Notes: generated from the sequence alone by a model not told the origin. A DNA stretch of 64,000 nt from Anaerolineales bacterium (GCA_034430595.1 DAOUEL010000078.1:285013-349012), one strand, 5' to 3'; shown: positions 19,235-39,573, counted from the first letter of the stretch. Translations and numbers: made by a program.

Positions 19235-19843
19235 ATGACACCCTCTGCCTACAGAATGATCGTGAGGAGCGGTCCGAATCCAGGAACCGTCTTCGAGTTG
19301 ACCAGGGAAGTATCGACTATCGGGCGCGATGTGACGAACGAGGTCGTCATTGGCGATGCGGAGATCTCACGCCAGCACGCTCGCCTGACGCGCACCCCCG
19401 GCGGTTACGTGCTCGAGGACCTTGGTTCGACCAATGGCACCTTTGTTAACAGCGAGCGCCTGATGGCACCGCGCGTGCTCAATCCGGGCGATTTGATCGC
19501 CTTAGGCGAAAACGTTAACTTGATGTTCGACGCGGTTGCGCCAGAAGCAGCCGCGACGGTCGCGAGCCCGGTGGGTTCACCGGCAACGGTGGAACCACAA
19601 CAAGCTGCGCCACCTCGGAAAGCCGCCGCTCCTGCTGCCCCTCCCCCTGCAGCCAGCGCGCCCCCCATGGGAGCGATTCCTGCCCCACCGGCCGCTGAAA
19701 CACCAAGGAAACGCTTCGGAGGTTGGAAGCTGGCAGCGGTCGGATGTTTTGTCCTGATTCTGGCCTGCATCGGTACATTATTCTTCATGGATGCTTTCTA
19801 CCCGGACGTGCTCTACGCACCCCTGCGCTGGTTCGGTTTCTAG
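19235..19843 (+). CDS. FHA-domain protein with Pro/Ala-rich linker and C-terminal TM helix
   Basis: IGRDVTNEVVIGDAEISRQHARL...LGSTNGTFVN is an FHA core. A PA-rich stretch and then WKLAAVGCFVLILACIGTLFF follow. Confidence 0.88.
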   Translation: MTPSAYRMIVRSGPNPGTVFELTREVSTIGRDVTNEVVIGDAEISRQHARLTRTPGGYVLEDLGSTNGTFVNSERLMAPRVLNPGDLIALGENVNLMFDAVAPEAAATVASPVGSPATVEPQQAAPPRKAAAPAAPPPAASAPPMGAIPAPPAAETPRKRFGGWKLAAVGCFVLILACIGTLFFMDAFYPDVLYAPLRWFGF

Positions 19844-20554: not shown

Positions 20555-23158
20555 TCACGCAGCCTGTTCGGATACCTCGCGGGGCTTGATCGCCTCGAAG
20601 GTCAGGCCTTCTGACCCGTGCTCGACATGGATCGTATCTCCGGGTTTGAAGTCGCCGGCCAGGATGCGCAGGGCAAGCGGATCTTGCAGTTCGCGCTGCA
20701 GCGTGCGCTTCAAAGGCCGAGCCCCGTAAACTGGCTCGTAGCCCGTTTCCGCCAGGTAGGCTTTAGCCGCCTCGCTCAGGTCGAGACCAAATCCCTGTTC
20801 TGCCAACCGTGCACGCACCCGCCGGAGCTGGATTTCGACAATTTGCTTTAAATCGCCCATCGTCAGCCGGTGGAAGATGATGATCTCATCGATGCGGTTG
20901 AGAAATTCTGGCCGGAAGTGGCGGGTGAGGAGGTCACGCACCTTCGCTTCGGTTGCCTCGGTGCTGCCCTCGGGATCATCCCACAGTTCCGTACCCAGGT
21001 TGCTGGTCATAATGACAACCGTATTGCGAAAGTCAACGGTTCGGCCCTGGCCATCGGTCAGGCGGCCATCGTCGAGGAGCTGCAGGAGAACGTTGAAGAC
21101 CTCTGGATGGGCCTTCTCGATCTCATCAAAAAGGATCACGCTGTAGGGGCGGCGGCGGACAGCTTCGGTCAATTGGCCACCTTCCTCATAGCCGACATAT
21201 CCTGGGGGCGCACCGATCAGTCTTGAGACGGTATGTTTCTCCTGGTATTCCCCCATGTCAATCCGCACCATGGCGTGTTCATCATCGAAGAGAAATTCGG
21301 CCAGAGCCCGGCCGAGTTCGGTCTTTCCCACCCCGGTCGGCCCCAGGAAAATAAACGAACCGATTGGTCGATCGGGATCCTGCAGACCTGAGCGCGCCCT
21401 CCGAACGGCGTTGGCGACCGCCCGGACGGCTTCGTCCTGCCCGATGACACGCTGGTGCAGGCGGTCTTCCATATGAAGCAGCTTCTGCATCTCGCCTTCG
21501 AGCAGCCGCGAGACAGGGATCCCGGTCCAGCGTGAAACAACGTTGGCGATATCCTCAGCATCCACTTCTTCTTTCAGCAGTGGGGCTTCGGATTGAGCCT
21601 CATGTAAGCGCTGTTCAAGCTCACTCAGCTTGGTCTCAAGCTCGCGCTGGGTTCCATAGCGCAGGCGGGCAGCTTCCTCCAGGTTAGCCTGGCGTTCGGC
21701 GCGTTCAATCTGCAGCCGGGTATCTTCGAGCTGCCCCTTGATATCGCGTATCTCGCCGATAACCCCTTTCTCGGCCTGCCAGCGGCTGGTGAGCTGGCTC
21801 GACTCCTCGCGAAGGTCAGCCAGTTCGCTTTCCAGCTTATCAAGCCGGGTGCGGGAGGCCTTGTCCTTCTCCTTCTTCAACGCTTCGCGCTCGATCTCGA
21901 ACTGCATGATCTGCCGGTCGACTTCATCCAGCGCCTGGGGTTTAGAGTCGATTTCGGTCCGCAGCCTCGCGCCTGCTTCGTCGATCAAATCGATCGCCTT
22001 GTCGGGCAGGAAGCGATCGGCGATGTAGCGATGCGAGAGCGTGGCGGCAGCGATCACAGCGCTGTCCTGGATGCGCACGCCGTGGTGAATCTCATAGCGC
22101 TCTTTCAGGCCACGCAGGATGCTGATGGTATCTTCGACGCTCGGTTCAGCGACGAAGACTGGCTGAAAGCGGCGTTCGAGTGCGGCGTCCTTCTCGATGT
22201 ATTTGCGGTATTCATCGAGTGTTGTGGCGCCAATCATGTGCAGTTCACCGCGGGCCAGCATAGGTTTGAGCATATTTCCGGCATCCATCGACCCTTCGGC
22301 TGATCCTGCTCCGACGACGGTGTGCATTTCGTCGACGAAGAGCAGGATTTCCCCGGCGGCGTCGGTGATTTCGGTCAGAACCGCTTTAAGCCGCTCTTCG
22401 AACTCACCGCGATACTTGGATCCAGCAACCAGCGCGCCCAGGTCGAGCTGCACGATGCGTTTGTTCTTCAAACCCTCCGGCACATCACCGTTGACGATCC
22501 GCTGTGCCAGGCCTTCGACGATCGCCGTCTTGCCAACACCCGGATCACCGATCAGCGCCGGGTTGTTCTTGGTGCGCCGCGAGAGAACCTGAATTAAACG
22601 CCGGATCTCCTCATCACGGCCAATAACCGGATCGAGTTTGCCGCGCCGGGCAAGCTGGGTTAGATCGCGGCCGTATTTTTCGAGCGCCTGAAAGGTATCC
22701 TCTGGATTGGGCGTTACCACGCGCTGTGAGCCGCGAATCGAAGTCAAGACTTTCAGAATAGCTTCCGGTGTGACCCCAAAAGAGCTCAGCGTGTCAGACA
22801 GTGGTCCAGCAGTGAGCGCCAGCAGCAAGTGTTCGGTTGACACATATTCGTCTTTCATGGCCGCAGCCTGTTTTTCGGCTGCCGCGAGTGCCTGCGAGGT
22901 TGAACGTGCCATGCCAGGCTGATCGCCCCCACCAACCATCGTTGGACGCTTCTCGAGCTGTTGTTCAATCTCCTGCAGCAGCATGGCCGGGCTTCCAGCG
23001 ATCTGAGTGACGATAGCCGGAACGACGCCTTCCGGCTGGCGCAGCAGCGCCAGCAGCAAATGCTCTGGCTCAATCGAGGCATGACCCATCTCACGCGCCT
23101 GGTGTTGGGCGTCGATCAATGCCGCCTGGGCTTTCTGTGTATACCGTTCAAGGTCCAT
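20555..23158 (-). CDS. clpB: ATP-dependent chaperone/disaggregase ClpB
   Basis: Clp_N repeats, two AAA+ modules ([15 protein letters not shown] and [15 protein letters not shown]) and a long coiled-coil middle domain. The start is trimmed to the ATG at 23158 ([11 protein letters not shown]), which has a GGAGA SD. The listed 926-aa ORF carries an implausible N-terminal extension. Confidence 0.96.
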
Positions 23159-23281
23159 ATCAACTTCTCCTGAAATCAAGCGTAAGAAACCGTTTGGTTT
23201 GAGCCCTGTCCCCTGCTTCGTAATCCCAGGGCTCAGACAGCTTAATTGTAGGGTCCGCATATATGATGAACGTTGGCACAT

Positions 23282-23312
23282 TATTAACGCAGTATCTGGG
23301 GCGGCGTTAATA
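23282..23312. promoter_or_regulatory. perfect 9-bp inverted repeat TATTAACGC-N13-GCGTTAATA in the clpB/hsp20 divergent intergenic region
   Basis: Read directly from the sequence. It lies 96 nt upstream of the hsp20 ATG and 124 nt upstream of the clpB ATG. It matches neither CIRCE nor HAIR consensus. Confidence 0.4.
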
Positions 23313-23407
23313 GAGTTCCAATATACGTATTGCATCTCTCTGATAATGGACGGATATGATCTATATCATCTGAGAGTAAGTTCACCGAATTAAAGGAGTG
23401 AGAAACG

Positions 23408-23803
23408 ATGACGTACTATTTGGTACCGCGCAAGTATGGCCGTTGGGTTGGATATCGTCCGGTAGGCTTTAACGGCGGACGCCGGCTGCCAGTCGATGTG
23501 CACGCCAGCGGTGATGATTTTGTGATCAGCGCATCCGTACCCGGTTTGAAAGCAGAAGACCTTAAGATCCAGATTCTGGATGATGTTGTTACCTTACAGG
23601 CCGAGGTTCAGGATATGGAGGTGGAATCGGAGACGGTCCTGCTGCGTGAGATCCCCCAGGGAGGCTTTGAGCGCAGCTTGCGGCTTCCGGCTCCACTCGA
23701 TGCCCAGCACGCTGAGGCGAAGATCGAGAATGGATTGCTCACACTGCGAATCCCGAAGTCCGAAGAGGCACGCCCAAAGGTGATCGAAGTCAAGGCACGC
23801 TAA
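23408..23803 (+). CDS. Hsp20/alpha-crystallin small heat-shock protein
   Basis: 131 aa with an alpha-crystallin core (VDVHASGDDFVISASVPGLKAEDLKIQI...FERSLRLP...ENGLLTLRIPK). AAGGAG SD. Confidence 0.93.
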   Translation: MTYYLVPRKYGRWVGYRPVGFNGGRRLPVDVHASGDDFVISASVPGLKAEDLKIQILDDVVTLQAEVQDMEVESETVLLREIPQGGFERSLRLPAPLDAQHAEAKIENGLLTLRIPKSEEARPKVIEVKAR

Positions 23804-23823
23804 GGTATAAATCCTTCTGAGGT

Positions 23824-23859
23824 ACAATGGGCGGCAAATGCCGCCCATTGTTGCTTTTT
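23824..23859 (+). terminator. intrinsic terminator after hsp20
   Basis: ACAATGGGCGGC-AAAT-GCCGCCCATTGT followed by TGCTTTTT. Confidence 0.75.
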
Positions 23860-23869
23860 CGGAGACGGT

Positions 23870-24562
23870 ATGTTCCCCATTCGGGATACAATTCGAAGTC
23901 GTTCCATACCGATCGTCAATTACTCTCTAATCGCTGCGAACGTCCTGGTCTATCTTTTTCAATCAATCCTCTCCCAGCGCGGGTTTCAAACACTATTGGG
24001 GTCGTTTGGATTAATACCAGCCACCTTCACGCTAGCCAGTTCCCACAGCTTGCTGACGATTATTACATCGATGTTCTTGCACGGCAGTTGGTTCCACGTG
24101 CTGAGCAATATGTGGGTGCTATATATCTTCGGTGACAACGTCGAAGATCGGATGGGATCGATCCGCTATCTGATTTTCTACCTGCTGTCTGGAATTTTGG
24201 CAGCGTTGACCCATGTCTTCTTCGCACCTGGGTTGGCGGTTCCAACAGTGGGCGCAAGCGGTGCGATCGCAGGCGTGTTGGGAGCCTATTTCTATCTTTT
24301 CCCGCGCTCCAGAGTGCTGACTTTTGTCCCGCTCTTCATTCTCCCCTGGTTTATCGAAGTCCCGGCGGTAGTCTTTCTCGGTTTGTGGTTCATCTTGCAA
24401 CTGTTCAGCGGCCTGATGATCGGGGGGCTGGCGATGGAAGGCATCGCCTGGTGGGCTCATATCGGTGGCTTTATCTTTGGCTATATCCTGGTCCGGGCTT
24501 TCGTCCCCCGGCCGCGAGTGATGGTCGTCCGACATCAGGGAGATCCATGGTCCTATGGCTGA
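23870..24562 (+). CDS. rhomboid-family intramembrane serine protease
   Basis: Six or more TM helices, with HGSWFHVLSNM, the catalytic GASGAIAGVLGAY and AHIGGFIFG motifs. Confidence 0.9.
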   Translation: MFPIRDTIRSRSIPIVNYSLIAANVLVYLFQSILSQRGFQTLLGSFGLIPATFTLASSHSLLTIITSMFLHGSWFHVLSNMWVLYIFGDNVEDRMGSIRYLIFYLLSGILAALTHVFFAPGLAVPTVGASGAIAGVLGAYFYLFPRSRVLTFVPLFILPWFIEVPAVVFLGLWFILQLFSGLMIGGLAMEGIAWWAHIGGFIFGYILVRAFVPRPRVMVVRHQGDPWSYG

Positions 24563-24644
24563 TACAATCAGCTTGAGCTAATGAGATTTGGGGCAATTTT
24601 GTGCGAATGAAAGCGCAGCTCGAACTGCGCGGGGAGGTCGCGGT

Positions 24645-25406
24645 ATGTCTGAAAAGCCCGTGAAAATCGATGTCAACCAGGCAGGACTGGAGGCCTTAAC
24701 AGTTCTTCCTGGTGTTGGTGAGGAGATTGCCGCCCGGATTATCTCGCGGCGCCCCTACAAGGGGGCTGGCGAACTTTTGAACGTTCCAGGCATCGGTCCA
24801 AAGGGCGTCGAGCGCCTGACCCCCTATCTGGTGTTCAATGCAGAGCCGGGCTCAAACAACCAGGGTGTTCGAAGCACCTCCAGAGGAATGCCCTCACCGG
24901 GCAGTAGATCCGGCGCTGGAGTGGAGAAAGGCGCTCCGGAAGCAGGCCGCGGGATCACTCGCCAGACGCTGCTCTGGTTTTGTCTCGGCACCGGATTGGT
25001 TAGCGTCCTTGTCTCGGTGATCCTGAGCCTGGCGATCCTGGCCGGGATTAACGGCACCTTGAGCATAGAACGCAATGCAAGCATCCGGCAGTTGAATGGA
25101 CGAGCTTCAGCCGCGGAGCAGCAGCTTGAAGAGCTTGGTGCGAGCATCGATTCGCTCGAAACCCGCCTGAAATCCGTCGAAGGACTGAGCGGCAGGATGA
25201 CCACCATGGAAGACGAATTCGCTTCCATGCGAGAACAGGTGGATGCGGCGCGGGCTGAAGTGGATGGAATTCAAACGACTGTGTCGGGCTTGTCCGGGCA
25301 GATCGGATCACTCGAGAGCCGAGTCAGCGTGTTCGACGCCTTCCTGCGCGGGATCGAACGCATCCTGCAGGAGGTTCTCCCGCAGCAGCCAATGGAGGTC
25401 CCATGA
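24645..25406 (+). CDS. ComEA-like helix-hairpin-helix protein with one TM helix and a C-terminal coiled coil
   Basis: IDVNQAGLEALTVLPGVGEEIAARII...LLNVPGIGPKGVERL is a tandem HhH. A TM helix (LLWFCLGTGLVSVLVSVILSLAIL) and a heptad-rich tail follow. ATG at 24645 with a GGAGG SD. Confidence 0.75.
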   Translation: MSEKPVKIDVNQAGLEALTVLPGVGEEIAARIISRRPYKGAGELLNVPGIGPKGVERLTPYLVFNAEPGSNNQGVRSTSRGMPSPGSRSGAGVEKGAPEAGRGITRQTLLWFCLGTGLVSVLVSVILSLAILAGINGTLSIERNASIRQLNGRASAAEQQLEELGASIDSLETRLKSVEGLSGRMTTMEDEFASMREQVDAARAEVDGIQTTVSGLSGQIGSLESRVSVFDAFLRGIERILQEVLPQQPMEVP

Positions 25407-26275
25407 CCGAACAGAACCAGCTACCTGAGAGCGTACCTGAAACGAATCCAGAGGAATCCAGCTCAGCCGCTGCTTCCGGTCGCGGTCCTGGCCCTAGTCT
25501 GGCGGGAAGGATCGGCCGGGTTCTACTTCGCCTGCTGGTTGTTTTTATCCTTGGTGCGGCGTTGGGGGCGGGGATCTACTACGGTGCCATCAAGCTCTAT
25601 CGAGATGCGATCGAACCACTGCGGACGCTCGACACGCGCCTGGAGGACCTGCAGTTCCAGCTCGATCACCAGGCGGCGAACCAGCAGGACCAAATGGTGG
25701 AACTGCGTACTCGCTTGACCGAGCTCGAAGGCCGTGCAGCAGCTATCAACGAGCAGCTCTCCGAACTTGAAGCGCGGGTTGGCGTCCAGCAGGATGACCT
25801 GGGTGCTTTGCAATCTCAGGTTGGCGATTTAACCCAGTTCGAGAGGCGTCTGAATGCGCTGGTCGATGACCAGGAAGCTCTGACGACCCGCATGCAAGAA
25901 CTAGAAGACCTGGTTGCCGGCGGCGACCTGCCAGCGGAGCGAATCGACCGCAACCTGCAGCTGCTGCGGGCCATGACTATCATGACTCGCGCACGAGTGT
26001 CGCTAAACGATTTAAACCTGGGCTTGGCTCAGGCTGACCTTGGCGCGGCGAGTGATATATTGGCTATACTCACGGCAGGAAGCACCGGGCAAGCGGAAGG
26101 TGATTCAGCCGCCGAACCGGGGCTAGTTGAGGCGAGCGATCATCTTTCAGCTGCATTGAGCAATGTGCTCAGCAGGCCAGCGGTGGCCGAAGAAGAACTC
26201 GAGATCGCGTGGAAGTTGTTAATTGAGTTTACTTCATCAACTCTTGAGCCTTCTGTCGATGCGGTGACGGAATAG
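25403..26275 (+). CDS. single-TM coiled-coil protein, unknown function
   Basis: Acidic N-terminus, one TM helix (VLLRLLVVFILGAALGAGIYYGAI) and a long Leu/Glu/Gln heptad region. ATGA start/stop overlap with the upstream gene. GGAGG SD. Confidence 0.7.
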   Translation: MTEQNQLPESVPETNPEESSSAAASGRGPGPSLAGRIGRVLLRLLVVFILGAALGAGIYYGAIKLYRDAIEPLRTLDTRLEDLQFQLDHQAANQQDQMVELRTRLTELEGRAAAINEQLSELEARVGVQQDDLGALQSQVGDLTQFERRLNALVDDQEALTTRMQELEDLVAGGDLPAERIDRNLQLLRAMTIMTRARVSLNDLNLGLAQADLGAASDILAILTAGSTGQAEGDSAAEPGLVEASDHLSAALSNVLSRPAVAEEELEIAWKLLIEFTSSTLEPSVDAVTE

Positions 26276-26292
26276 CCTGGAGGGAGGCGGTA

Positions 26293-26955
26293 ATGCAGGA
26301 ACAGGAAAACGCAAGCCCGGGGCAGGAACCCGAATCGATCAACATGGACGCGGAAGCCGGAATAGACGAACAACGTTCCCCGGTTGAACCGCTGCCTGAA
26401 ACGTCCTCCGCCGAAATGCAACCAGCCCGACCAAGCAGACTGCGGCGCGTTCTCGTCTGGGTCCTCGCAATTCTGCTCGTATTCAGCCTCGGGGTGGGTG
26501 CGTGCTGGCTGACCCAGGTTCAACCCCAGCGTGAATTGATTGCCAGCCTCGAGAGTCGCACGGGGGATGCCGAAGCCCAGGCCGCGAACCTGCAGGCCGA
26601 GGTTACGAGATTATCGCCCTTCGAAGGCGAGAATGAAGCGCTGCGAACTCAGCTCAAGCGCAGCACACAGCATCTCGATCTGCTCTTCGTGCTCGTTGAT
26701 GTGACCAGTGCTCAGCTGGCGATGGTGCAGGAAGATATCCTTGCCGCCAAGGCCGCATTAAGTGGAACGGATGCTCGCCTCGGAAACCTGGAGTCGAATC
26801 TGAGCGGGGCGGAGGCTGAGACAGTGAAAGGGTTAAGTGAGCGGCTGACCTTGGTGCTGGATGAAGTTGAATCAGATGAATTCGCCGCCCGACGCGATCT
26901 TGAAATTCTCGCCAACAACCTGCTTTCGCTGGAGCGATCGCTATTCGGTGAATGA
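26293..26955 (+). CDS. single-TM coiled-coil protein, unknown function
   Basis: Same architecture as 25403..26275: acidic N-terminus, TM helix VLVWVLAILLVFSLGVGACWL, then coiled coil. GGGAGG SD. Confidence 0.7.
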   Translation: MQEQENASPGQEPESINMDAEAGIDEQRSPVEPLPETSSAEMQPARPSRLRRVLVWVLAILLVFSLGVGACWLTQVQPQRELIASLESRTGDAEAQAANLQAEVTRLSPFEGENEALRTQLKRSTQHLDLLFVLVDVTSAQLAMVQEDILAAKAALSGTDARLGNLESNLSGAEAETVKGLSERLTLVLDEVESDEFAARRDLEILANNLLSLERSLFGE

Positions 26956-26977
26956 CTTAATCGAACGGGGTGCGAAG

Positions 26978-27012
26978 GGGCCGCATGCAGCCATGCGGCC
27001 CGTTTTACTTTT
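26978..27012. terminator. intrinsic terminator between convergent operons
   Basis: GGGCCGCATG-CAGC-CATGCGGCCC followed by GTTTTACTTTT. Confidence 0.8.
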
Positions 27013-27104
27013 CCAGGTGCTATGCTTATCTGCTCATAATTTTGCTGATGGACGTACTGCGAGGAAACCGCTCCCCTGAAGGTTAGACCGTGAACGCTTA
27101 TGGG

Positions 27105-28211
27105 TCAGTACCGCAGCAATGCACCGATGTTGCCCATCTGGTCCATCTGCGGGTTGTTATGCATAACCTGCACTTCTCCCCCGTTTTCGATCACACGCTG
27201 AATGGCGAATTCAACCGCATCCTCGATGTACTCGAAATCACCACCGCAAAACGGGCAGGCCGGCATGGAACGCATTGAAAGGTAACCACAGTTCTTGCAG
27301 CGGTGGCCGGGAGCCCGGTACCCATCACGGATCACCAGCGTCTGTACCTTGCCGTCATGGACCGCGTCGAGCGTGTCTTCGAGCCTTATCACGCCTCCCT
27401 CGCCCTTGGCGGCAGAGGTGATGATTGACTCTATCAAGCGTTGATCCTTCAACTGCTCGGCCGATTTTGCCAAAGCCATCGCCTTTTCAAGCACCTGGGT
27501 ATGTCCGGCGGTCATTTCGATCGGGAATGTCCCCAGGGTAAGAGATTGCCAGCGTTTCGGTAGCAGGTCGATCAGGCGCTGTGGGATGGGATCGGTGCCT
27601 CCCACCAGCACCCGTCGGACCTGGTTGGTGGTGAAGAATTCGGTGGCAAACTCGGCAGCCTGACGCAAGTTGCGCTCAACCTTTTCATCACCGTCTCGCG
27701 CCGGATCCACGGAGCTGCTCCGTCGACCGGGTGCGCTCGAGCCTCGGCCGTGTTTGCTCGATCGAACGCTTTCACCAGCTGTGCCCTCCTGCGAGACCAG
27801 TTCCCCGAGATGAAAGTGGAATAAACGTGCTCCCTGACTGTCGACGACGGCCACGCCGAAGTGGCCATAATTATCAAGCAGGTCAGCAAGCGGTTTGACG
27901 TAGGGGGTCTCAAGCAAGCGCGCCCTGCTCCGGAGCGGGAGAGCAAAAATGAAATCGTGGAAGAAGCCAACTTCGGCGCAGGAAAACAAAGCCAGGCTGC
28001 GCCCCGAGCCGTCGTATTCGTGATCGACATACCGTAAAACCCGATCGACATCCTGCGGGGCATGGGCCTCATACTCTTTGACCAGCGCGCGCAGCCGGAG
28101 ACGCACAGTGTCGGCGGCGCCGCTCGAGGGATCCACATCCAGATAGACGCTGAGAACAGGGGCGGCGGGTTTAAATGCGATCATGTCCTGCAGAATACGG
28201 TCGCTGAGCAT
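27105..28211 (-). CDS. archaeo-eukaryotic release factor (eRF1/Pelota)-like protein, bacterial clade
   Basis: The central loop SSKHGRGSSAPG...EKVERNLRQAAEFATEFF resembles eRF1 [32 protein letters not shown]. A CxxC...CxxC ribbon (CKNCGY...CPFCGG) is present. The C-terminal ...GNIGALLRY resembles eRF1/Pelota domain 3 ends. Strong AGGAGG SD. Confidence 0.75.
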   Translation of the reverse strand: MLSDRILQDMIAFKPAAPVLSVYLDVDPSSGAADTVRLRLRALVKEYEAHAPQDVDRVLRYVDHEYDGSGRSLALFSCAEVGFFHDFIFALPLRSRARLLETPYVKPLADLLDNYGHFGVAVVDSQGARLFHFHLGELVSQEGTAGESVRSSKHGRGSSAPGRRSSSVDPARDGDEKVERNLRQAAEFATEFFTTNQVRRVLVGGTDPIPQRLIDLLPKRWQSLTLGTFPIEMTAGHTQVLEKAMALAKSAEQLKDQRLIESIITSAAKGEGGVIRLEDTLDAVHDGKVQTLVIRDGYRAPGHRCKNCGYLSMRSMPACPFCGGDFEYIEDAVEFAIQRVIENGGEVQVMHNNPQMDQMGNIGALLRY

Positions 28212-28258
28212 TGCATGCCTCCTGGCTGTCCTGGACGGGTTAAATCAGCCCGCCGAGG

Positions 28259-29467
28259 TTAAGGGCGTGGGCCAACAGTCAAGGTGAGTTCAACCTCCTG
28301 GTTATCACGAATAATGGTCAGGGTGATCTCCTGCCCAACCTCGGTTTTCTTGAACAGATAGGAGAGCAGGTCATCGAATTGGCGCACGGTGATCCCATCG
28401 ATGGCGATGATCAGATCGCCACCGGCAAGCAAGCCCGGGATGGCGGTCTCGCGTTCCCCGGCCCGCAAGCCTGCACGATCAGCCGGCCCGCCGGGGACGA
28501 CTTCCGTGATATACGCCCCATAAGTGCTGGTCGTGAAGCCCAGCTCCTCGATCGTCTTTAAATTCCAGCGCTCATCATTCAGGCTGCTGATGCCCAGGTA
28601 GGGATAATCATATTGGCCGTTGCTGATGATGTTCGGGACAACACGCCGCAGCAAATTGACCGGCACGGCGAAACCAACACCCGAGTTGGCTGCGCTTCCA
28701 TCGACGGTAAATGATTCGGTTTGAATGGCCCGGTTGATTCCGATGACCTGGCCTTCGAGATTGAGCAAGGGACCGCCCGAGTTGCCCGGGTTTATGGCAG
28801 CATCGGTCTGGATCAAGTCTCCGGCGGAGAAGATCCGGTTGACGCCGGGGGCGGCCCGCTCTGAAGTGAGAGAGCGACCGATGGCCGAAACGACCCCAAG
28901 CGTCATCGTGCCTGACAGGCCGAACGGATTGCCGATTGCAACGACAAAGTCGCCGACCCGCACAAGGTCCGAATCGCCAAGCGGGAGCGGCGAGAGCTGA
29001 TCAGCGGGAAGATCTACCTTCAAGACTGCGAGATCCGAATCGGGATCGGTGCCTATGAGTTCAGCCCAGGCCTTTGCACCGCTGACGAAATCGACCTCGA
29101 TCTCGACTGCTTCAGCAATCACGTGCTGATTGGTGACGATGTGACCCTCACGATCGATGACAAAACCTGAGCCCTGACCGGTAGGCAAGCTTTCGACCTC
29201 GGCGCTGCCCTGGTGTTCGAAGGACCAGATGGTGACAACGCCGGAATTCGCCAGCTCATACAATCCTGCCAGGTCTGCGGAACCGGACGGGAGCGCTTGA
29301 GCCGGAGCGGGTGGCGAAGCGACTGAGGGCGGAGCCTCGCTCGTGGGCAGAAGAACGGCCTGGCTGGTGGCCAGCGGTGGTTCCGTTTGAGGTGCCAACT
29401 GGATTCCACACGCAAGTGAGCTTAATAGCATTCCAATGAATACAAGAACGGTAACTCGTCTTTTCAT
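28259..29467 (-). CDS. HtrA/DegP-type S1C serine protease with PDZ domain (lipoprotein-type signal)
   Basis: Signal peptide ending LSSLAC. Trypsin-fold motifs HIVTNQHV, DLAVLKV and NPGNSGGPLLN. C-terminal PDZ domain. Confidence 0.92.
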   Translation of the reverse strand: MKRRVTVLVFIGMLLSSLACGIQLAPQTEPPLATSQAVLLPTSEAPPSVASPPAPAQALPSGSADLAGLYELANSGVVTIWSFEHQGSAEVESLPTGQGSGFVIDREGHIVTNQHVIAEAVEIEVDFVSGAKAWAELIGTDPDSDLAVLKVDLPADQLSPLPLGDSDLVRVGDFVVAIGNPFGLSGTMTLGVVSAIGRSLTSERAAPGVNRIFSAGDLIQTDAAINPGNSGGPLLNLEGQVIGINRAIQTESFTVDGSAANSGVGFAVPVNLLRRVVPNIISNGQYDYPYLGISSLNDERWNLKTIEELGFTTSTYGAYITEVVPGGPADRAGLRAGERETAIPGLLAGGDLIIAIDGITVRQFDDLLSYLFKKTEVGQEITLTIIRDNQEVELTLTVGPRP

Positions 29468-29510
29468 CGCTACCTATCCTCAGATTTGGGATCAACCGGG
29501 TGCGGCACTC

Positions 29511-30428
29511 TTATTTGTGCCGCTCTTTTGACAGGGATTCGAACAGCTCGCGTTCTTTTTTAGTAAGGTCCTGAGGCAGTTTAACATCGAGATGTGCGTA
29601 CAGGTCCCCCTGGCCCTTACCGCGCAGTTTTGGCATGCCACGGCGCTTTAATCGGAAGCTCTGATCGGGTTGGCTCCCGGCGGGAATGGTGAGCACGACA
29701 TCTCCTCCCGGCGTGGGGATGGTAACTTCACCGCCGAGAACCGCCGTGTAGAGATCGACCTCAACCTCCGTGTGCAGGTCGTCACCCTCACGCTTGAAAC
29801 GGGCGTCAGGTTGAATGTCGACCACCAGGAAGAGGTCGCCGGATTGACGTTGGCCGCTTTCGCCTTTACCGCTGACACGGATCTTTGTTCCGGTCTTCGC
29901 CCCGGGTGGAATCGTCACCTCGAGCGTTTTTCCATCACGCCGGAATGAGCGTGTAGTTCCCGCATAGGCTTCCTGCATCGTAATCTGAATGGGTTGCTCG
30001 ATATCGCGACCGCGGCTGCTAGCCGTACTGCGCGCCGAGCTCTCTTGGGCACCCGTGCCGCCAAATATGGCATTGAAGAAATCGGAAAATCCCCCCCCGA
30101 ACATTTCGCCCAGGTCGCCAACTTCGACTCGAACGCCGCCGGACGTACCGCCGCCCCACTGCGACCAATCGAAGCCTCCTGGCTGACCGCCCATCCTCTC
30201 CCAATCCTGGTAGGTTGAGCCGAGCTGATCATACTTAGAGCGCTTTTCCGCGTCGCCCAGTACTTCGTAGGCTTCATTGATTTCTTTAAAGCGGGTCTCA
30301 GCCTCCGGATTATCCGGATTCTTATCGGGATGATATTTCAAGGCTAATTTGCGGTACTGGCGCTTGATCTCGTCTGCGCTCGCCTTACGATCGACGCCAA
30401 GAACCTGATAGTAATCTTTGTATTCCAT
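29511..30428 (-). CDS. DnaJ-class co-chaperone without zinc finger (CbpA-like)
   Basis: DYYQVLGV...[15 protein letters not shown]-domain, a G/F-rich region and two beta-sandwich C-terminal domains. No CxxCxGxG repeats. Confidence 0.92.
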
Positions 30429-30451
30429 TGTCCTGCGATCTTCCCCTGTTG

Positions 30452-30470
30452 TGATTCCAGGCTGGAATCA
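30452..30470. promoter_or_regulatory. 19-bp perfect palindrome TGATTCCA-GGC-TGGAATCA upstream of the J-protein/HtrA/eRF1-like cluster
   Basis: Read directly from the sequence. It lies 24-42 nt upstream of the start at 30428, in the divergent intergenic region shared with the REC-GAF gene. Confidence 0.4.
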
Positions 30471-30569
30471 TATGAGGTTCGGCTTCTTTGATTCTAACAC
30501 GCGCTGCCTTCAACCCGGGTGACTACGGTAGGAGAGGGACCGGTTAACATTCCGTGCTATCATACTCAC

Positions 30570-31730
30570 ATGATGGAAGGGATCCGCCTGGAACGCATCT
30601 TGATTGTAGACGAAGATCCGGATACGCTCGACTTGCTGGCGCGTCAGATTCTCAAGCCCCAGGGCTACCAAGTGGCGACAGCAAGCGAAGCAGGTGCTGC
30701 GATTCAGAAGGCACTGCAGTTCGGGCCGGATATGATTATCGCCAGTCTGACATTGCCTGGGTTGAGCGGTAAGGACCTGCTGGTAGCGCTGCGTGCCCAG
30801 GGCACTGATGTCCCGATGCTCGTCACGGCCAAGAAGGGGATGGAGGCTGATGCGATCCAGGCTTTCCGCCTGGGAGCGCATGACTATCTGGTCAAGCCCC
30901 TGCGTGAAGCGGAAGTCATCGCCGCACTTGAACGTGTCATCACCGAGATCCGCTTGCGGCGTGAGCACCGTCAGCTGGCAGGGCAGCTGGCGGAGAGCAA
31001 CCGGCAGCTCGAACGCCGGGTGCGCGAACTGACCACGCTCTTTGGACTCGGAAAGACCGTCACCTCGACGACCCACCAGGGGCAGCTGTTCAACAAACTG
31101 ATGGAGGGCAGCCTGTATGTCACGGAAGCTGACATGGGCTGGGTGCTGCTGCGGATGGAGGACTCGGATACCTTGAACCTGAGGGCCGAGCGCAACCTGC
31201 CAGCGGGAGTGTCTGCCAAGGCTCATCAGGCGTGGGATGACGGCGTTAGTTCGCTTGTCATGCTCTCGGGTGAAGCGCTTGCTATTCATGGAGAAGGGTT
31301 AAGCAAATTCAAGCTCTCACAATTCGCCGGCGCGGCACTAATCGCGCCGATCAAGGTTCGCGACCAGCCAATTGGCGTGATCTGCGTTGCACGTACCTCC
31401 ACACGCCCTTTCACGGAAAGGCAGCTGGTCATGCTCGAGGCGGTGGCAGATTATGCCTCCATTTCGCTGGTCAATGCCAGGCTCTTTCAAGCACTTGAGG
31501 ATCGCGCCCAGCGGCTGGAAAGCCAAATCAAGGGCAGCCGCGGAGAAGTCGATGGGCGCTGGTTAAGCGACGTGCACCGCAGTGTGCGCGCGGCTCAGGC
31601 GGAACTGGCGACAATGATGGATGAAGACAAAGAAGGTATGTTCAAAGGACGTCTGGGCATCGTTCAGGAAGACCTGGACGTGATTTTGGATAAGATCTCA
31701 AAAGTCGGCCCACCCGACGAACAGGCTTGA
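30570..31730 (+). CDS. response-regulator receiver plus GAF domain protein
   Basis: ILIVDEDPDTLDLL...DMIIASLTLPGLSG...TAKK... is a REC domain. A coiled linker and a GAF-like domain follow. The start is trimmed to the ATG at 30570. Confidence 0.85.
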   Translation: MMEGIRLERILIVDEDPDTLDLLARQILKPQGYQVATASEAGAAIQKALQFGPDMIIASLTLPGLSGKDLLVALRAQGTDVPMLVTAKKGMEADAIQAFRLGAHDYLVKPLREAEVIAALERVITEIRLRREHRQLAGQLAESNRQLERRVRELTTLFGLGKTVTSTTHQGQLFNKLMEGSLYVTEADMGWVLLRMEDSDTLNLRAERNLPAGVSAKAHQAWDDGVSSLVMLSGEALAIHGEGLSKFKLSQFAGAALIAPIKVRDQPIGVICVARTSTRPFTERQLVMLEAVADYASISLVNARLFQALEDRAQRLESQIKGSRGEVDGRWLSDVHRSVRAAQAELATMMDEDKEGMFKGRLGIVQEDLDVILDKISKVGPPDEQA

Positions 31731-31817: not shown

Positions 31818-33743
31818 TTGAAGATGGATGAGAAGTTGATTCTGCTCGCCGAGGACAACGAAGAAATTCGTACGTTCCTGCAGGAATCGGTGCTCATACC
31901 GGCTGGCTACCGTGTGCAGGCCGTTGAAGATGGGATTGCCGCCCTGGCTTTTGCCCACAGCTTACATCCCCAGCTTGTCGTTACCGATCACCAGATGCCC
32001 AACCTGACTGGCCTGGAGTTGGCAGAACGCCTGCAGCGCGATTTGCCCGAGATCCCTGTCATCTTAATGACGAGCGAGGCGAGCAAAGATCTCATTCTGG
32101 AAGCGCTGCGGGCGGGAGCAGTCGACTTCCTGACGAAGCCATTCGAATCCGAGCAGCTGCTCTCGGCCGTCGGCCGGGCGCTCAAACTCAAACGCCCGAG
32201 GTCACCATCAAGCTCTATTAACCAGGATACCCGCCCAGGAAATGGCCAGCTGGTGCGGCGGGTGAATGAACTCGAAGCGCTCTCGAAGATTGGCCGTACG
32301 GTGACCTCCGTGCTGGATCTTGACCGGGTCTTGACGACCGTGGTTGAAGAATCCGTGCGCTTGACCGGGGCGGAAGAAGGAAGCCTGCTGCTGCTCGAAC
32401 CAGAGAGCGGCGAACTGTACATGCGGGCTTCGAAGAACTTCGATGACGAATTCGCCCGAGCTTTCCGGCTGCAGGTGCACGATTCGCTGGCCGGTGCAGT
32501 GTTAGCGCGCGGTGAGCCGGTCCTGTTGGATGAGAGCTCCCCGCAAAAGATCAAAACTGCATACCTGGTCCATAGTTTAATTTACGTACCGCTGCGGGTC
32601 CATGGCCGCGTGATCGGTGTCCTGGGAGTCGATAACCGCAAAGCCGGTCGAGCCCTCACTCAGGAGGATATAAAGCTTCTAACAGCGATGGCCGATTTTG
32701 CCGCCATCGCGATCGAGAATGCCCAGTTGTATAACCACAGCAACGATCAGCGCCGCAAGCTTGAAACGATCCTGACCCAGTCCGAGAGCGGCCTGATCGT
32801 CGTGGACAACGAAAATCGAGTGCTGCTGATCAACCCCACGGTGCGGTCGATCTTTCATGTTGAGGGCGACTGTGAGGGCCGTTCTGCGGCCGAAGTTTTC
32901 GATGAGCCACGTCTGTTGTCATTACTGCGGGAGGGCGGCGACCTCAACCGGCATGATGAGCTCGCTTTCGAGGATGGGCGGGTGTTCAGTGCAACTCGCA
33001 CTCCGATTCGCGGCATCGGTCAAACGGTCATCCTCCACGACATCACCCATATGAAAGAGCTTGATCGCGTCAAATCGGAGTTTGTCACCACCGTATCCCA
33101 TGATCTGCGTTCACCCCTGACGGCGATTCTCGGCTACGTAGAGTTGATCGACCGTGTTGGACCGCTGACCCCGGAACAGGTTGATTTTCTCGACCGCGTT
33201 CGTTTAAGTGTTGAGCAAATCACAGACTTAGTTACCGACCTGCTTGATCTGGGCCGGATTGAATCGGGGCTCGATACGTCGAAGGAAGATACGCAGTTGG
33301 CAGTCCTGGCCCACTATGCCGTGCAGGGCTTGAAATCTGAGGCTGAGGTCAAGGGTGTCAGGTTGGTCACACGCATCGATTCTGAACTCCCGAAGGTGCA
33401 CGGTGACCCGATTCGGTTGCGTCAGATGATTGGCAATCTACTCAGCAATGCGATCAAGTACACTCCAACCGGCGGCGAGGTTCGACTGGAATTGAGCGTA
33501 GAGGACCAGCAACTTATCCTGCGGATCAGCGATACAGGAATGGGCATCCCCCCTAAAGATCAACCCTTCCTATTCGACAAATTCTTCCGTGCCAGCAATG
33601 TACCGATGGATACCAGTGGTACCGGCCTGGGACTCTCGATTGTGAAGTCAATAGTCGAACAACACGCAGGGCGTATCTGGGTCGAGTCCCAGGTTGGCGA
33701 GGGAACGACCTTCACGGTTGTCATGCCCAGCCTCACCAGCTAA
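31818..33743 (+). CDS. hybrid REC-GAF-PAS histidine kinase
   Basis: REC domain (LILLAEDNEEIR...VVTDHQMPNLTG), a GAF domain, a PAS-like segment, the H-box VSHDLRSPL and an HATPase domain (NAIKYTP...GTGLGLSIVK). Confidence 0.9.
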   Translation: MKMDEKLILLAEDNEEIRTFLQESVLIPAGYRVQAVEDGIAALAFAHSLHPQLVVTDHQMPNLTGLELAERLQRDLPEIPVILMTSEASKDLILEALRAGAVDFLTKPFESEQLLSAVGRALKLKRPRSPSSSINQDTRPGNGQLVRRVNELEALSKIGRTVTSVLDLDRVLTTVVEESVRLTGAEEGSLLLLEPESGELYMRASKNFDDEFARAFRLQVHDSLAGAVLARGEPVLLDESSPQKIKTAYLVHSLIYVPLRVHGRVIGVLGVDNRKAGRALTQEDIKLLTAMADFAAIAIENAQLYNHSNDQRRKLETILTQSESGLIVVDNENRVLLINPTVRSIFHVEGDCEGRSAAEVFDEPRLLSLLREGGDLNRHDELAFEDGRVFSATRTPIRGIGQTVILHDITHMKELDRVKSEFVTTVSHDLRSPLTAILGYVELIDRVGPLTPEQVDFLDRVRLSVEQITDLVTDLLDLGRIESGLDTSKEDTQLAVLAHYAVQGLKSEAEVKGVRLVTRIDSELPKVHGDPIRLRQMIGNLLSNAIKYTPTGGEVRLELSVEDQQLILRISDTGMGIPPKDQPFLFDKFFRASNVPMDTSGTGLGLSIVKSIVEQHAGRIWVESQVGEGTTFTVVMPSLTS

Positions 33744-34031: not shown

Positions 34032-35312
34032 ATGCAAGGTGGCGGGAATGAAAAAGATCGGGCAAGGCTCCACCAACGTTTGCGCCGACTGAGCGGAGAG
34101 CGTGGCGCTGGACGCACCCGCAAAATTACACCAAAACCTGCGGAACCTGACGCAAACCTCGGCCAACCGGTCGTAACTACCTCTGGACCAGCTTTCCTGA
34201 TTGAGCAGCTCTACACCCACGACTACGAACACGGTGCCTCTCCATTAGGGCAGCTGCTTCACTTTGATTCGAACCTGGCAGCGAGCGTGGCTCAGGATCC
34301 TGGGTTGGGTGCAGTCGAAGCTGAGGATCTAATCTTTCTCGATACCGAGACAACCGGTCTAGCAGGAGGCGCCGGGACGCTGGTCTTTCTGGTTGGGTTG
34401 GGTCAGTTCACGGCCGGCGGTTTCCAGCTGCGACAATACTTTCTGCGCGATCCGGCTCAGGAACGCGCCATGCTGTTGGCCCTGGGCGAATCGCTTGATC
34501 GTGGGGCTGCCTTCGTCACCTTCAACGGCCGCTCCTTCGACCTACCGCTGCTTGACATGCGCTACCAGATCGCCATCCGGCAGGCTGCCGGCTTGACAGC
34601 CTGGCCGCATCTTGACCTGCTCTACCCCTCCCGCAGGCTCTGGCGCAGGGCCCTTTCGGATTGCCGGTTAGGCACGCTCGAAAAGGAGGTGCTGGGTGTA
34701 CGGCGGACGGAGGAGGATGTGCCGGGCGCCCTCATCCCCGGCATGTACCTCGACTATCTGCGCAGTGGAGAAATCCATGACATGGAACGGGTTGTGTACC
34801 ACAACGCAATCGATATTCTCAGTCTAGTGGCGTTAACCGAGGAAGTGCTCGCCCGCCATCGGGCTGGTGTCATCCCTGATCTCTCCGGCGCAGAAGCGCT
34901 GGGAATGGCGCGCTGGCATCAGCAGCATGGAGAGCTCCGTCCAGCAGAAGCAGCCTATCTGGCTGCGATCGAGACTGGCCAGGATGCGCTGCGGCTCGAA
35001 GCGCTGCGGCATTTCACTGCGCATTTAAAGCATGAGGATCGACGCTCAGAAGCCCTTACCTACTGGAAACGATGGCACGTTCTCGACCCGGGCGATCCGC
35101 AGCCATGCATTGAGCTCGCAAAGTACTACGAATGGCATGATCAAGACCTGAGTCGGGCAGCCGGATGGGCGGAGAAGGCACTGCTGTGCTTGAGCCATTG
35201 GCCGCCAGGCTGGCGGACCGACCAGATCTGGAACGAGGTCCAGCACCGACTGGAGCGTATCAACCGCAAACGGACGCCGCAGCCCTCCCAGGGCTCTGAA
35301 ACGGCAGAATAA
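34032..35312 (+). CDS. RNase H-like (YprB-type) predicted exonuclease with C-terminal TPR-like region
   Basis: LIFLDTETTGLAGGAGTLVFLVGLG...FVTFNGRSFDLPLL...HNAIDILSL are DEDD-like motifs of the YprB/RNase_H_2 family. The tail is helical repeats. Confidence 0.8.
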   Translation: MQGGGNEKDRARLHQRLRRLSGERGAGRTRKITPKPAEPDANLGQPVVTTSGPAFLIEQLYTHDYEHGASPLGQLLHFDSNLAASVAQDPGLGAVEAEDLIFLDTETTGLAGGAGTLVFLVGLGQFTAGGFQLRQYFLRDPAQERAMLLALGESLDRGAAFVTFNGRSFDLPLLDMRYQIAIRQAAGLTAWPHLDLLYPSRRLWRRALSDCRLGTLEKEVLGVRRTEEDVPGALIPGMYLDYLRSGEIHDMERVVYHNAIDILSLVALTEEVLARHRAGVIPDLSGAEALGMARWHQQHGELRPAEAAYLAAIETGQDALRLEALRHFTAHLKHEDRRSEALTYWKRWHVLDPGDPQPCIELAKYYEWHDQDLSRAAGWAEKALLCLSHWPPGWRTDQIWNEVQHRLERINRKRTPQPSQGSETAE

Positions 35313-37837: not shown

Positions 37838-39385
37838 ATGGAGAGAGAAAACGAGACCATCGGGGAAGAGATTCTGCATGACGCTGAAAACGAGAAGCCA
37901 ACAGAGCACCCGATGGATGCCCTGCTTGATGCAGAGGCTTACGAACTGGAAACACCACGCCGGGGCGAGATTCGCACCGGTACCATCGCACGTATTACCG
38001 AGAACGACATCCTGGTAGACATCGGAGCTAAATCCGAGGGCTTGATCAGCAGCCGCGAGATGGAACAACTCACAGAAGAACAGAAGGCTGAACTGGAGGT
38101 TGGTTCCGAGATCAGTGTCTATGTCATCCGCTCCGCAGATCGCGATGGCACGCTGCTGCTCTCTATTTCACGCGCGGAAGAGGAATCCGAGTGGCAGGAA
38201 GCGGAAGCGCTACTTGAATCGGAAGAACCCTACGAGGGCATTATTTCTGGCTACAACAAGGGCGGCCTGATTGTGAAATTCGGCCACTTGCGCGGCTTCA
38301 TCCCTGCCTCCCAGGTGAGCCTGGCCCGGCGGCGACGAGCGGAGGGGGAAACCCCCGACCAGCGCTGGGGTAAGATGGCCAGCGAGCCAATCATCGCCAA
38401 GGTAATCGAAGTCGACCGGCGACGCAACCGACTGATCCTTTCCGAACGCGCTGCGGCCCGCGAATCGCGCGATGCGCTCAAGGAACGCCTGATCTCAGAA
38501 CTCAAACCCGGCGAAGTCCGGACCGGAACCGTGATTAGCCTGGCTGATTTCGGCGCCTTTATCGACATCGGAGGAGCCGACGGGTTGGTGCACATTTCCG
38601 AGCTCTCATGGAAGCGTGTTGATCATCCCAAGGATGTGCTCAAGATCGGACAGGAAGTAGAGGTCAAAGTCCTCAATGTCGACGCGGATCGCAAGCGGAT
38701 CAGCCTGTCGCTGAGAGAACTTGAGGACAATCCTTGGGACGAGATCCTGGCTTCCTTCACCGAAGGACAGCTGGTGGAGGGCACGATCACCAAGCTAACC
38801 AAGTTCGGTGCCTTCGCAACCATCAAGGATATCGAGGACTACGAGATAGAAGGCCTGATCCACATATCCGAACTTTCCGATCAGCGCATCGAGCATCCAC
38901 GCGAAGTCGTGGAAGAAGGTCAGACGCTGGCACTGCGCTTGATCAAGATCGATCGTGAACGCCGGCGGCTGGGCTTGAGCCTCAAGCGCGTTGATTCGGC
39001 CGAATTTGCCGATGTCGATTGGCGTGCAGCGATGCAGGAAATGGAAACTGAGGATGAACCAGAGCCGCAGGTTGAGGCCGATGAAATCGAGGACTTCGAC
39101 GCCGAGCTAGAAGGCGAGATCCCCGATTTACCCTCGGAAGAAGTCGAACTCCAGGAAGAGGAACCCGAAGCTGGAGCGCCAGCAGCGGAAGGTACGCCAG
39201 AGAGCGAAGCCGAACTCGAACCAATCACAGACGTAAAAGAAGACGAGAACGTTGAGGATGCCGAGGCCGAAGAGCCGGTGGCCGAGGAAACATCTGTGAG
39301 TACAGCTGAACTCGAGCCGGCGGCAGACGCCCATGAAGAAGAAGTGGCTGAGAGTGCCGAAGAGGACGACGAGGCCGCAGGCTGA
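37838..39385 (+). CDS. rpsA: 30S ribosomal protein S1 with a long acidic C-terminal extension
   Basis: Four S1/OB repeats (GTIARI..., GIISGYNKGGLIV, GTVISLADFGAFIDIG, GTITKLTKFGAFATI). A Glu/Asp/Ala-rich tail of about 130 aa follows. Confidence 0.93.
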   Translation: MERENETIGEEILHDAENEKPTEHPMDALLDAEAYELETPRRGEIRTGTIARITENDILVDIGAKSEGLISSREMEQLTEEQKAELEVGSEISVYVIRSADRDGTLLLSISRAEEESEWQEAEALLESEEPYEGIISGYNKGGLIVKFGHLRGFIPASQVSLARRRRAEGETPDQRWGKMASEPIIAKVIEVDRRRNRLILSERAAARESRDALKERLISELKPGEVRTGTVISLADFGAFIDIGGADGLVHISELSWKRVDHPKDVLKIGQEVEVKVLNVDADRKRISLSLRELEDNPWDEILASFTEGQLVEGTITKLTKFGAFATIKDIEDYEIEGLIHISELSDQRIEHPREVVEEGQTLALRLIKIDRERRRLGLSLKRVDSAEFADVDWRAAMQEMETEDEPEPQVEADEIEDFDAELEGEIPDLPSEEVELQEEEPEAGAPAAEGTPESEAELEPITDVKEDENVEDAEAEEPVAEETSVSTAELEPAADAHEEEVAESAEEDDEAAG

Positions 39386-39453: not shown

Positions 39454-39505
39454 CGCCATCTATGGGGGAATTAAATCCCACTTTCCCATTCCGGCATGCT
39501 TTCTT

Positions 39506-39514
39506 TGGTAGAAT
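39506..39514 (+). promoter_or_regulatory. extended -10 promoter element TGGTAGAAT upstream of clpC
   Basis: TGnTAGAAT lies 60 nt upstream of the ATG at 39574. Confidence 0.35.
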
Positions 39515-39573
39515 ACGAGTCAATCAGGAGGAATTTGGCAAAATGGCTCGGAGGATTAACGGTGGCCGATAAG

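Follow-up and report, generated by a model that had tools for sequence, protein, structure and literature searches.

A Gln-less member of baeRF-1 family 10 encoded with a J-domain co-chaperone and an HtrA-type protease in an Anaerolineales genome

Introduction

Bacteria terminate translation with RF1/RF2. What is, then, the function of a bacterial protein with the fold of the archaeo-eukaryotic release factor (aeRF1), and why is its gene clustered with those of a co-chaperone and a protease? These questions are raised by a stretch of 64,000 nucleotides (nt) from Anaerolineales bacterium (GCA_034430595.1 DAOUEL010000078.1:285013-349012), referred to here as the window, in which a gene encoding such a protein of 368 amino acids (aa) follows the genes of a J-domain co-chaperone and an HtrA-type protease. 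The product belongs to baeRF-1 family 10 as a bona fide member, is distantly related to the Balon proteins characterised so far, and carries Ser at the position of the catalytic Gln of the eRF1 Gly-Gly-Gln (GGQ) loop. The explanation favoured here, with moderate confidence, is that of a ribosomal A-site factor, induced by heat or proteotoxic stress, by which ribosomes would be plugged or parked and the peptide not released.

The bacterial aeRF-1 clade, including baeRF-1 family 10, was defined computationally by Burroughs and Aravind in 2019 (PMC6514570). These authors described GGxSQ and GxuQ motifs for the Vms1-like (VLRF-1) clade and singled out family 10 for its retained conserved Gln, and hence as a possibly active peptidyl hydrolase. 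Vms1, which is a partner of the AAA+ ATPase Cdc48 (PMC6514570), uses a GSQ motif and cleaves the tRNA's CCA end (PMC9757039, PMC7026593). The bacterial homologs passed from curiosity to mechanism only in 2024, when Balon, Msmeg1130 and Rv2629 were described as hibernation factors, located under stress in the A site of the ribosome together with EF-Tu (Helena-Bueno et al. 2024, PMC10901736). These proteins have neither NIKS nor GGQ, and their features are: i) a loop in the N-domain (HP motif), ii) a lasso loop, iii) a bL27 trap, and iv) an insertion in the C-domain. All the bacterial aeRF1 homologs, present in about 20% of bacteria, were counted as Balon homologues, and their genes are often found in stress operons including Hsp20, DnaK and DnaJ (PMC10901736). 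An earlier, sequence-only reading of the locus had stated that no biochemical function was known for the bacterial members; for the superfamily this is outdated, because the closest solved structures to the window protein are precisely the Balon hibernation factors.

Family membership and fold of the 368-aa protein

27105..28211, minus strand: baeRF-1 family 10 gene (baeRF10), 368 aa, aeRF1/Balon fold, putative ribosomal A-site factor

The aeRF1 fold anticipated by the sequence-only reading was found both in profile searches and in the predicted structure. The baeRF_family10 model of Pfam (PF18854) matches residues 103-248 with 115.5 bits, against a gathering threshold of 27.1 (E=3.1e-33), accompanied by weak matches to the eRF1_3 and zinc-ribbon models. 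The structure predicted by AlphaFold2 (AF2) from 25 orthologs has a mean predicted local distance difference test score (pLDDT) of 83.4, with disorder confined to a loop at residues 151-169 (pLDDT <50). When it was compared with the PDB by Foldseek, the top match was the Balon Msmeg1130 (8v9l_z; E=1.8e-24, template modelling (TM) score 0.75), and high scores were also obtained with Rv2629 (8v9k_z, TM 0.67) and the Balon of P. urativorans (8rdw_B, TM 0.66). The aRF1/eRF1 structures came next, with TM scores of about 0.5, and Pelota/Dom34 last (0.26-0.44). Both E-values are far beyond chance similarity, and the three-domain, bacterial aeRF1-derived fold is shared with Balon.

Msmeg1130 is also the best PDB match at the sequence level, both with the single protein (phmmer) and with the profile of its orthologs. 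This profile aligns to Msmeg1130 over residues 7-304, which comprise the N and M domains (E=1.6e-15), whereas it aligns to aRF1/eRF1 from residue 104 onward only; the N-domain, alignable to residues 12-124 of Msmeg1130, is therefore classed as Balon-like, while the M and C domains are still recognisably eRF1-like in sequence (E about 1e-5 to 1e-8). The classical aRF1/eRF1 equivalog TIGR03676 does not reach its cutoff (40.5 bits vs 234.7), and in the NCBIfam search the aRF1_eRF1 model covers residues 104-368 only. Neither NIKS nor YxCxxxF nor an N-domain of the eRF1 type is present in the 368-aa sequence, which separates it from aRF1/eRF1; the lack of NIKS and of GGQ is common to Balon. The segment 'PFIHPL' of Msmeg1130, possibly the published HP motif of Balon, aligns to 'PYVKPL', invariant in the family, so that 'IHPL' is replaced by 'VKPL'.

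A Pelota-like role had also been proposed from the sequence. Such an identity was ruled out, since the structural similarity to Pelota/Dom34 is much lower than the TM score of 0.75 reached with Balon, and since the N-domain aligns with that of Balon. Pelota/Dom34, as a catalytically inactive A-site factor of the aeRF1 fold, nevertheless provides a conceptual precedent for a member without Gln.

Family 10, which is distributed in Chloroflexota and Actinomycetota, shares with the window protein the full N-M-C architecture and a zinc ribbon. Nearly all of the 120 closest homologs have a length of 366-370 aa, those with a name all belong to Anaerolineales or Chloroflexota, and the ortholog alignment contains 59 invariant columns. 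The wider family comprises 4,633 cluster representatives at E<=1e-3, 741 of them at E<=1e-30. Some relatives are named in NCBI as 'Vms1/Ankzf1 family peptidyl-tRNA hydrolase' or 'VLRF1 family aeRF1-type release factor', names that are model-based and not experimental; the window protein itself matches neither the acVLRF1 nor the bVLRF1 model of Pfam at E<=1.

The GGQ-equivalent loop and the loss of glutamine

27714..27755, minus strand: loop K153-S166, KHGRGSSAPGRRSS, counterpart of the eRF1 GGQ loop by alignment to eRF1

The loop region of the protein includes SSKHGRGSSAPGRRSSSVDPARDGDEKVERNLRQAAEFATEFF. As had been read at nt 27735-27755, within the 368-aa open reading frame (ORF), GGQ is replaced by GSS: the sequence KHGRGSS corresponds to residues 153-159 (nt 27755-27735), and G157-S158-S159 to nt 27735-27743. 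The proposed equivalence with the eRF1 loop also holds, by two alignments. In the phmmer alignment to wheat eRF1 (8ip8; E=4.4e-5) the query 'sskHGRGss' faces 'kkHGRGgqs', so that HGRG-x-x corresponds to HGRGGQ, and the ortholog profile places GGGSQ onto GRGGQ of human eRF1, Gln over Gln. The insert that had been described after GSS appears in the phmmer alignment as a basic insertion of six residues, which is not present in eRF1; a catalytic loop longer than that of eRF1 is also a feature of Vms1/ANKZF1 and the VLRF-1 clade. On the other hand, the eRF1-like HGRG, although real in the window protein, is peculiar to its species cluster, as it was read only there and in the 99%-identical cluster representative P0001, whereas the other orthologs have K[RH]GGG.

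The consensus of the ortholog loop is KRGGGSQAPGRRGG, with the pattern K-[RH]-G-G-G-S-Q-A-P-G-R-R-G-G. The residue aligned to Gln185 of eRF1 was extracted from the alignment in 80 species-level Anaerolineales genome loci: it is Gln in 61 of them (as GSQ in 59), and the remaining 19 have Ser, Thr, Ala, Lys or Met, with Ser (S159) in the window protein. A GSQ ortholog is, for instance, that of Ardenticatena maritima, listed by NCBI as WP_054491788.1. The Vms1-like GGxSQ motif, in the form GGGSQ, is thus carried by 59 of the 80 orthologs, in the place where the window protein has GRGSS. When conservation among orthologs is considered, as the sequence-only reading had suggested, the zinc ribbon is kept throughout and GSS is not: since most orthologs carry GSQ, GSS is not a family trait, and the Ser of the window protein and its clade is a departure from family 10 as it was described. 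Fitch parsimony on a neighbour-joining tree gives about nine independent losses of Gln within Anaerolineales (10 changes with the outgroup), a reconstruction by which the loss is recent, recurrent and lineage-specific.

The loop of the clade to which the window protein belongs (the query, L001-L003 and P0002-P0007) is the most divergent among the orthologs. The form KHGxGSSxPGRR[ST]S is, however, common to its members in spite of overall identities of 60-84%, therefore the altered loop itself is under constraint. In this Gln-less clade RRGG is also changed, to RR[ST]S, which results in a basic stretch rich in Ser/Thr, GSSxPGRR[ST]S. The window also has a gene for an FHA-domain protein (19235-19843); phosphorylation of the loop would be pure speculation.

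The predominant loop of the wider family is K-Q-G-G-W-[SA]-[QA]..Q-R-H, with a drifting position of Gln (GGWAAQK, GGWAASR, GGWAADK), according to a census of 129 full-length distant representatives by regular expression, which is noisy and of qualitative use only.

Zinc ribbon and C-terminus

27246..27299, minus strand: Cys4 zinc ribbon (CxxC...CxxC; C305, C308, C319 and C322) in the C-terminal (Pelota/eRF1_3) domain

The zinc ribbon described in the C-terminal domain is indeed a Cys4 ribbon, but it is not a novel insertion. The ribbon of the Pelota domain is an ancestral feature of aeRF1 proteins, already described, that degenerated in many families to a two-strand insert, interpreted by Burroughs and Aravind as possibly a degenerate zinc ribbon (PMC6514570). 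In the window protein it aligns with the insert of archaeal aRF1 (4af1). Its four Cys are kept in 80/80 orthologous loci, and the ribbon is almost universal in the 129 distant representatives, together with a GALLR[YF] end. The insertion occupies the site of the beta-hairpin in the C-domain of Balon, where the window protein has an intact Cys4 zinc ribbon instead. The archaeal VLRF-1 family is without the zinc-ribbon Pelota-type C-domain (PMC6514570), which the window protein keeps. The C-terminal GNIGALLRY, likened to that of eRF1 in the sequence-only reading, aligns to GGIGGILRY of eRF1.

Conserved gene neighbourhood

28259..29467, minus strand: HtrA/Do-type serine protease, 402 aa, with Trypsin_2 and one PDZ domain (Pfam and NCBIfam matches)
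29511..30428, minus strand: J-domain co-chaperone, class II (CbpA-like), 305 aa, with DnaJ and DnaJ_C domains; first gene of the operon

The ORF coordinates agree with the arrangement reported from the sequence, with the three genes on the same strand and gaps of 43 nt between the J-protein and HtrA and 47 nt between HtrA and baeRF10. A ribosome-binding site, AGGAGG, lies 5 nt upstream of the ATG of baeRF10. The J-protein has the HPD motif and is assigned to class II because, in Pfam, the zinc-finger domain is absent. HtrA contains GNSGG at residue 228 and begins with MKRRVTVLVFIGMLLSSLAC, a signal or anchor sequence.

The linkage is also found in relatives. Upstream DNA of at least 2.5 kb was available for 69 Anaerolineales loci, in 57 of which dnaJ and/or htrA precede baeRF10 (dnaJ in 54, htrA directly upstream in 46), distributed as follows:

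dnaJ-htrA-baeRF10: 43/69 loci
dnaJ-baeRF10: 11/69 loci
htrA-baeRF10: 3/69 loci
neither dnaJ nor htrA upstream of baeRF10: 12/69 loci

Downstream of baeRF10 these genomes have a conserved convergent block (two coiled-coil proteins, a HhH protein, a rhomboid and Hsp20) and then ClpB on the baeRF10 strand. A more distant branch, with a GGW-type loop and 33% identity to the query, was represented by 80 metagenome loci, 36 of which had enough upstream DNA and 44 enough downstream DNA. In this branch dnaJ and/or htrA are directly upstream in 33/36 loci (dnaJ in 26, htrA in 11), a MerR-family gene (HspR-like repressor) is located between dnaJ and baeRF10 in 14/36, and a gene for a ClpB-type AAA+ protein follows immediately on the same strand in 38/44. 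An example is the locus L093, with the order dnaJ, HspR-like repressor, baeRF10 and ClpB-like gene, whose repressor scores 101.8 bits with NF047375 (cutoff 105).

From this gene order the ancestral unit is reconstructed as dnaJ-(hspR)-(htrA)-baeRF10-clpB, into which, by the same comparison, an opposite-strand block was inserted before clpB in the lineage of the window. This linkage is absent from the description of the family by Burroughs and Aravind, as the terms 'ClpB', 'DnaJ', 'HtrA' and 'heat shock' do not occur in that paper (PMC6514570). The Gln-less protein is an addition to a catalogued family, and the useful new points are this deep linkage and the natural occurrence of GSQ and non-Q variants.

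The cluster had been proposed to be a proteotoxic-stress or nascent-chain quality-control module. The first part is consistent with the HspR, ClpB and Hsp20 neighbours, and a stress operon with chaperones is also a point in common with Balon. The second part does not hold for the protease, because HtrA, with its N-terminal signal or anchor sequence, works outside the cytoplasm and cannot reach nascent chains there; a direct degradation of released chains by HtrA was therefore ruled out, and the operon argues for co-regulation rather than for a physical pathway. It is better read as a co-regulated proteotoxic-stress set.

Proposed function and alternative explanations

The favoured explanation, a stress-induced A-site plug, takes the fold, family membership, loop composition and the structure and conservation of the operon as observed, and from them ribosome binding, stress induction in the source organism and absence of hydrolysis are inferred. 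baeRF10 would be co-transcribed with the CbpA-type J-protein and HtrA as part of an ancestral heat-shock operon, which heat or proteotoxic stress would induce. The tRNA-shaped, three-domain protein would then enter the ribosomal A site, presumably with no codon reading, because its N-domain is without NIKS, and the Gly- and Arg-rich loop of the middle domain would extend toward the peptidyl-transferase centre. As the catalytic Gln is Ser in the window lineage, a non-hydrolytic plug would be the most likely outcome, by which elongation could be halted or ribosomes parked and protected, as by Balon, while the co-expressed chaperones would clear misfolded protein. The repeated and tolerated loss of Gln argues that catalysis may not be the core selected function.

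Several observations weigh against this explanation. The three Balon-type 'ribosome hibernation factor' equivalogs of NCBIfam match over the full length yet far below their cutoffs (MSMEG_1130, 84.3 bits vs 480; Rv2629, 65 vs 320; AOC03_06830, 44.4 vs 330). The loop is much more similar to those of eRF1 and Vms1 than to that of Balon: its K-x-G-G...(S-Q) core is retained, whereas Msmeg1130 is without the KxGG..Q motif. Another difference from Balon is that no RaiA/HPF neighbour was seen. The replacement of Gln by Ser need not abolish catalysis, since some Gln substitutions in GGQ factors keep partial activity. Most orthologs retain GGxSQ, a motif read by Burroughs and Aravind as a sign of catalytic activity, and the literature searched yielded no experimental study of baeRF family 10 or of bacterial VLRF1. 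As regards induction, the window contains no homolog of MerR/HspR, and its operon no hspR; neither a CIRCE nor a HAIR operator was found in the window, the only HAIR match being one with three mismatches elsewhere, at chance level. In this respect the operon differs from those of the HspR type (dnaJ/cbpA-hspR, clpB regulon), so that stress induction in this genome is deduced from gene content alone.

It is possible, if unlikely, that family 10 is instead a catalytically active Vms1-like rescue or release factor, acting as a peptidyl-tRNA hydrolase or CCA-end nuclease. Such a factor would free nascent chains from heat-stalled 70S/50S particles, the J-protein/DnaK and ClpB would take the chains, and the GSS form would have reduced or altered activity. 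The ortholog consensus GGGSQ fits the GGxSQ/GxuQ motifs of the VLRF-1 clade and the GSQ used by Vms1 (PMC9757039, PMC7026593), family 10 was flagged as potentially active by Burroughs and Aravind, and the distant L093 member (baeRF_family10, 130 bits) exceeds the Pfam threshold of acVLRF1 (33.8 vs 27.1); moreover, released chains that need chaperones would explain the operon. The NCBI names given to relatives point in the same direction, but they derive from models. The window protein, however, is without Gln and has Ser in place of the second Gly, it has no acVLRF1 match, and its whole structure is nearer to Balon than to eRF1, while Gln was lost about nine times in a protein that stayed conserved and its position drifts in the wider family. 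A quite improbable alternative is that the protein has no catalytic role and serves as an adaptor, by which stalled ribosomes would be marked and ClpB and J-protein/DnaK recruited for the extraction or handling of the nascent chains, as a bacterial analogue of Vms1-Cdc48. The tight, same-strand adjacency of a ClpB-type AAA+ gene in 38/44 distant loci, with dnaJ upstream in 26/36, recalls the partnership of Vms1 with an AAA+ ATPase (PMC6514570). Besides, in the comparison of loop and linkage all 16 Gln-less orthologs have dnaJ upstream and all 15 loci without dnaJ keep Gln (Fisher p=0.015, with small numbers and uncorrected for phylogeny). This adaptor is, on the other hand, deduced purely from gene neighbourhood, with no interaction motif identified; as dnaJ-hspR and clpB classically belong to the same heat-shock regulon, their adjacency could mean shared regulation only, and in the window a 3.8-kb opposite-strand block lies between the operon and ClpB.

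Both activities could be combined in a scheme, considered rather improbable, in which family 10 is the ribosome-recognition part of a heat-shock-induced nascent-chain handling system with the J-protein and ClpB: the GSQ members would cut or release peptidyl-tRNA, and the Gln-less members would serve as an adaptor or plug that passes chains to DnaK/J-ClpB, in analogy to Vms1-Cdc48. Finally, the linkage could be inherited synteny with no functional meaning and the Gln-less protein a decaying relic. The close orthologs all come from one order, Anaerolineales, where synteny could be vertical, and no ortholog loop diverges more than that of the query clade; but the linkage holds at 33% identity in rearranged form (hspR inserted, htrA optional, clpB adjacent), conservation extends to the length of 368 aa, the 59 invariant columns and the Cys4 ribbon, and the divergent loop is itself kept within the clade, all of which makes a relic most improbable.

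Among the bacterial homologs, family 10 is the branch most similar to eRF1/Vms1, keeping both the zinc ribbon and the GGxSQ loop. It becomes a concrete experimental target by two results, namely the place of its gene in a dnaJ-(hspR)-(htrA)-clpB heat-shock operon, found in Chloroflexota that are very divergent, and the coexistence of GSQ and Gln-less variants in close relatives, which offers ready-made natural 'catalytic-dead' controls. The question is thereby opened of a coupling, in heat-stressed bacteria, of the arrest of ribosomes or the release of nascent chains to the disaggregase machinery. Where Gln-less forms are annotated as 'peptide chain release factor subunit 1' or 'Vms1/Ankzf1 family peptidyl-tRNA hydrolase', the label should be accepted with reserve only.

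Candidate promoter and regulatory elements

30491..30499, minus strand: TGTTAGAAT, candidate extended -10 promoter element of the operon (tentative), from conservation upstream of dnaJ
26978..27001, no strand assigned: GC-rich hairpin between the convergent baeRF10 and plus-strand coiled-coil genes, from a terminator scan and sequence reading

The sequence GCGTGTTAGAATC is kept upstream of dnaJ in the window and in its closest loci, L001-L003, and a consensus scan of 26900-30700 gave no internal sigma-70 promoter. The hairpin has a T-run on the plus strand only and is a probable transcript end.

In many of the other orthologous loci (L004-L080) a strong TTGACT-N17-TACAAT promoter is found upstream of dnaJ, and about 20-30 nt further upstream a conserved, direct-repeat-like element, TTAGAAT...(A)TTAGA/ATAAGA, to which a regulator could bind. 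In the clade of the window, only GCGTGTTAGAATC remains in the region upstream of dnaJ (30429-30518). The 5' leader of dnaJ in the window contains, between the putative -10 and the ribosome-binding site, a perfect palindrome of 15 nt, ATTCCAGCCTGGAAT (30454-30468), which is not kept in L001-L003 and could be an operator, an RNA hairpin or a chance occurrence.

Other genes in the window

20555..23335, minus strand (the operon strand): ClpB disaggregase; TIGR03346, 1368 bits vs cutoff 1232 for the version starting at 23158
23408..23803, plus strand: Hsp20 small heat-shock protein (Pfam HSP20), part of the conserved neighbouring block

ClpB lies about 3.8 kb downstream of the operon. From its first ATG the ORF encodes 926 aa, and the true start is probably at 23158, because the alignment to the ClpB model begins at residue 6 of the resulting 867-aa version. 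The gene is parted from baeRF10 by the opposite-strand block (23408-26955, plus strand), conserved in Anaerolineales, which encodes Hsp20, a rhomboid protease and a HhH (ComEA-like) protein containing a coiled coil, besides two other coiled-coil or membrane proteins that match no Pfam family. Hsp20 is kept downstream of baeRF10 in most Anaerolineales loci.

On the other side of the operon, a divergent gene for a REC-GAF protein (30519-31730, plus strand) is followed by that of a REC-GAF-PAS-HisKA-HATPase hybrid kinase (31818-33743, plus strand), both proteins being without a DNA-binding domain. These two genes flank the baeRF10 locus in most Anaerolineales genomes, including those where dnaJ and htrA are absent and the REC-GAF gene abuts baeRF10 directly. 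Just past them, a protein of 426 aa (34032-35312, plus strand) combines a domain of the RNase_H_2 superfamily (E=4.8e-36) with a C-terminal extension for which no Pfam family was matched. Further along the plus strand, ribosomal protein S1, with four S1 domains, is encoded at 37838-39385, and the gene directly after it (39496-42054) codes for another AAA+ ATPase of the Clp family, with 852 aa and 47% identity to the ClpB of the window.

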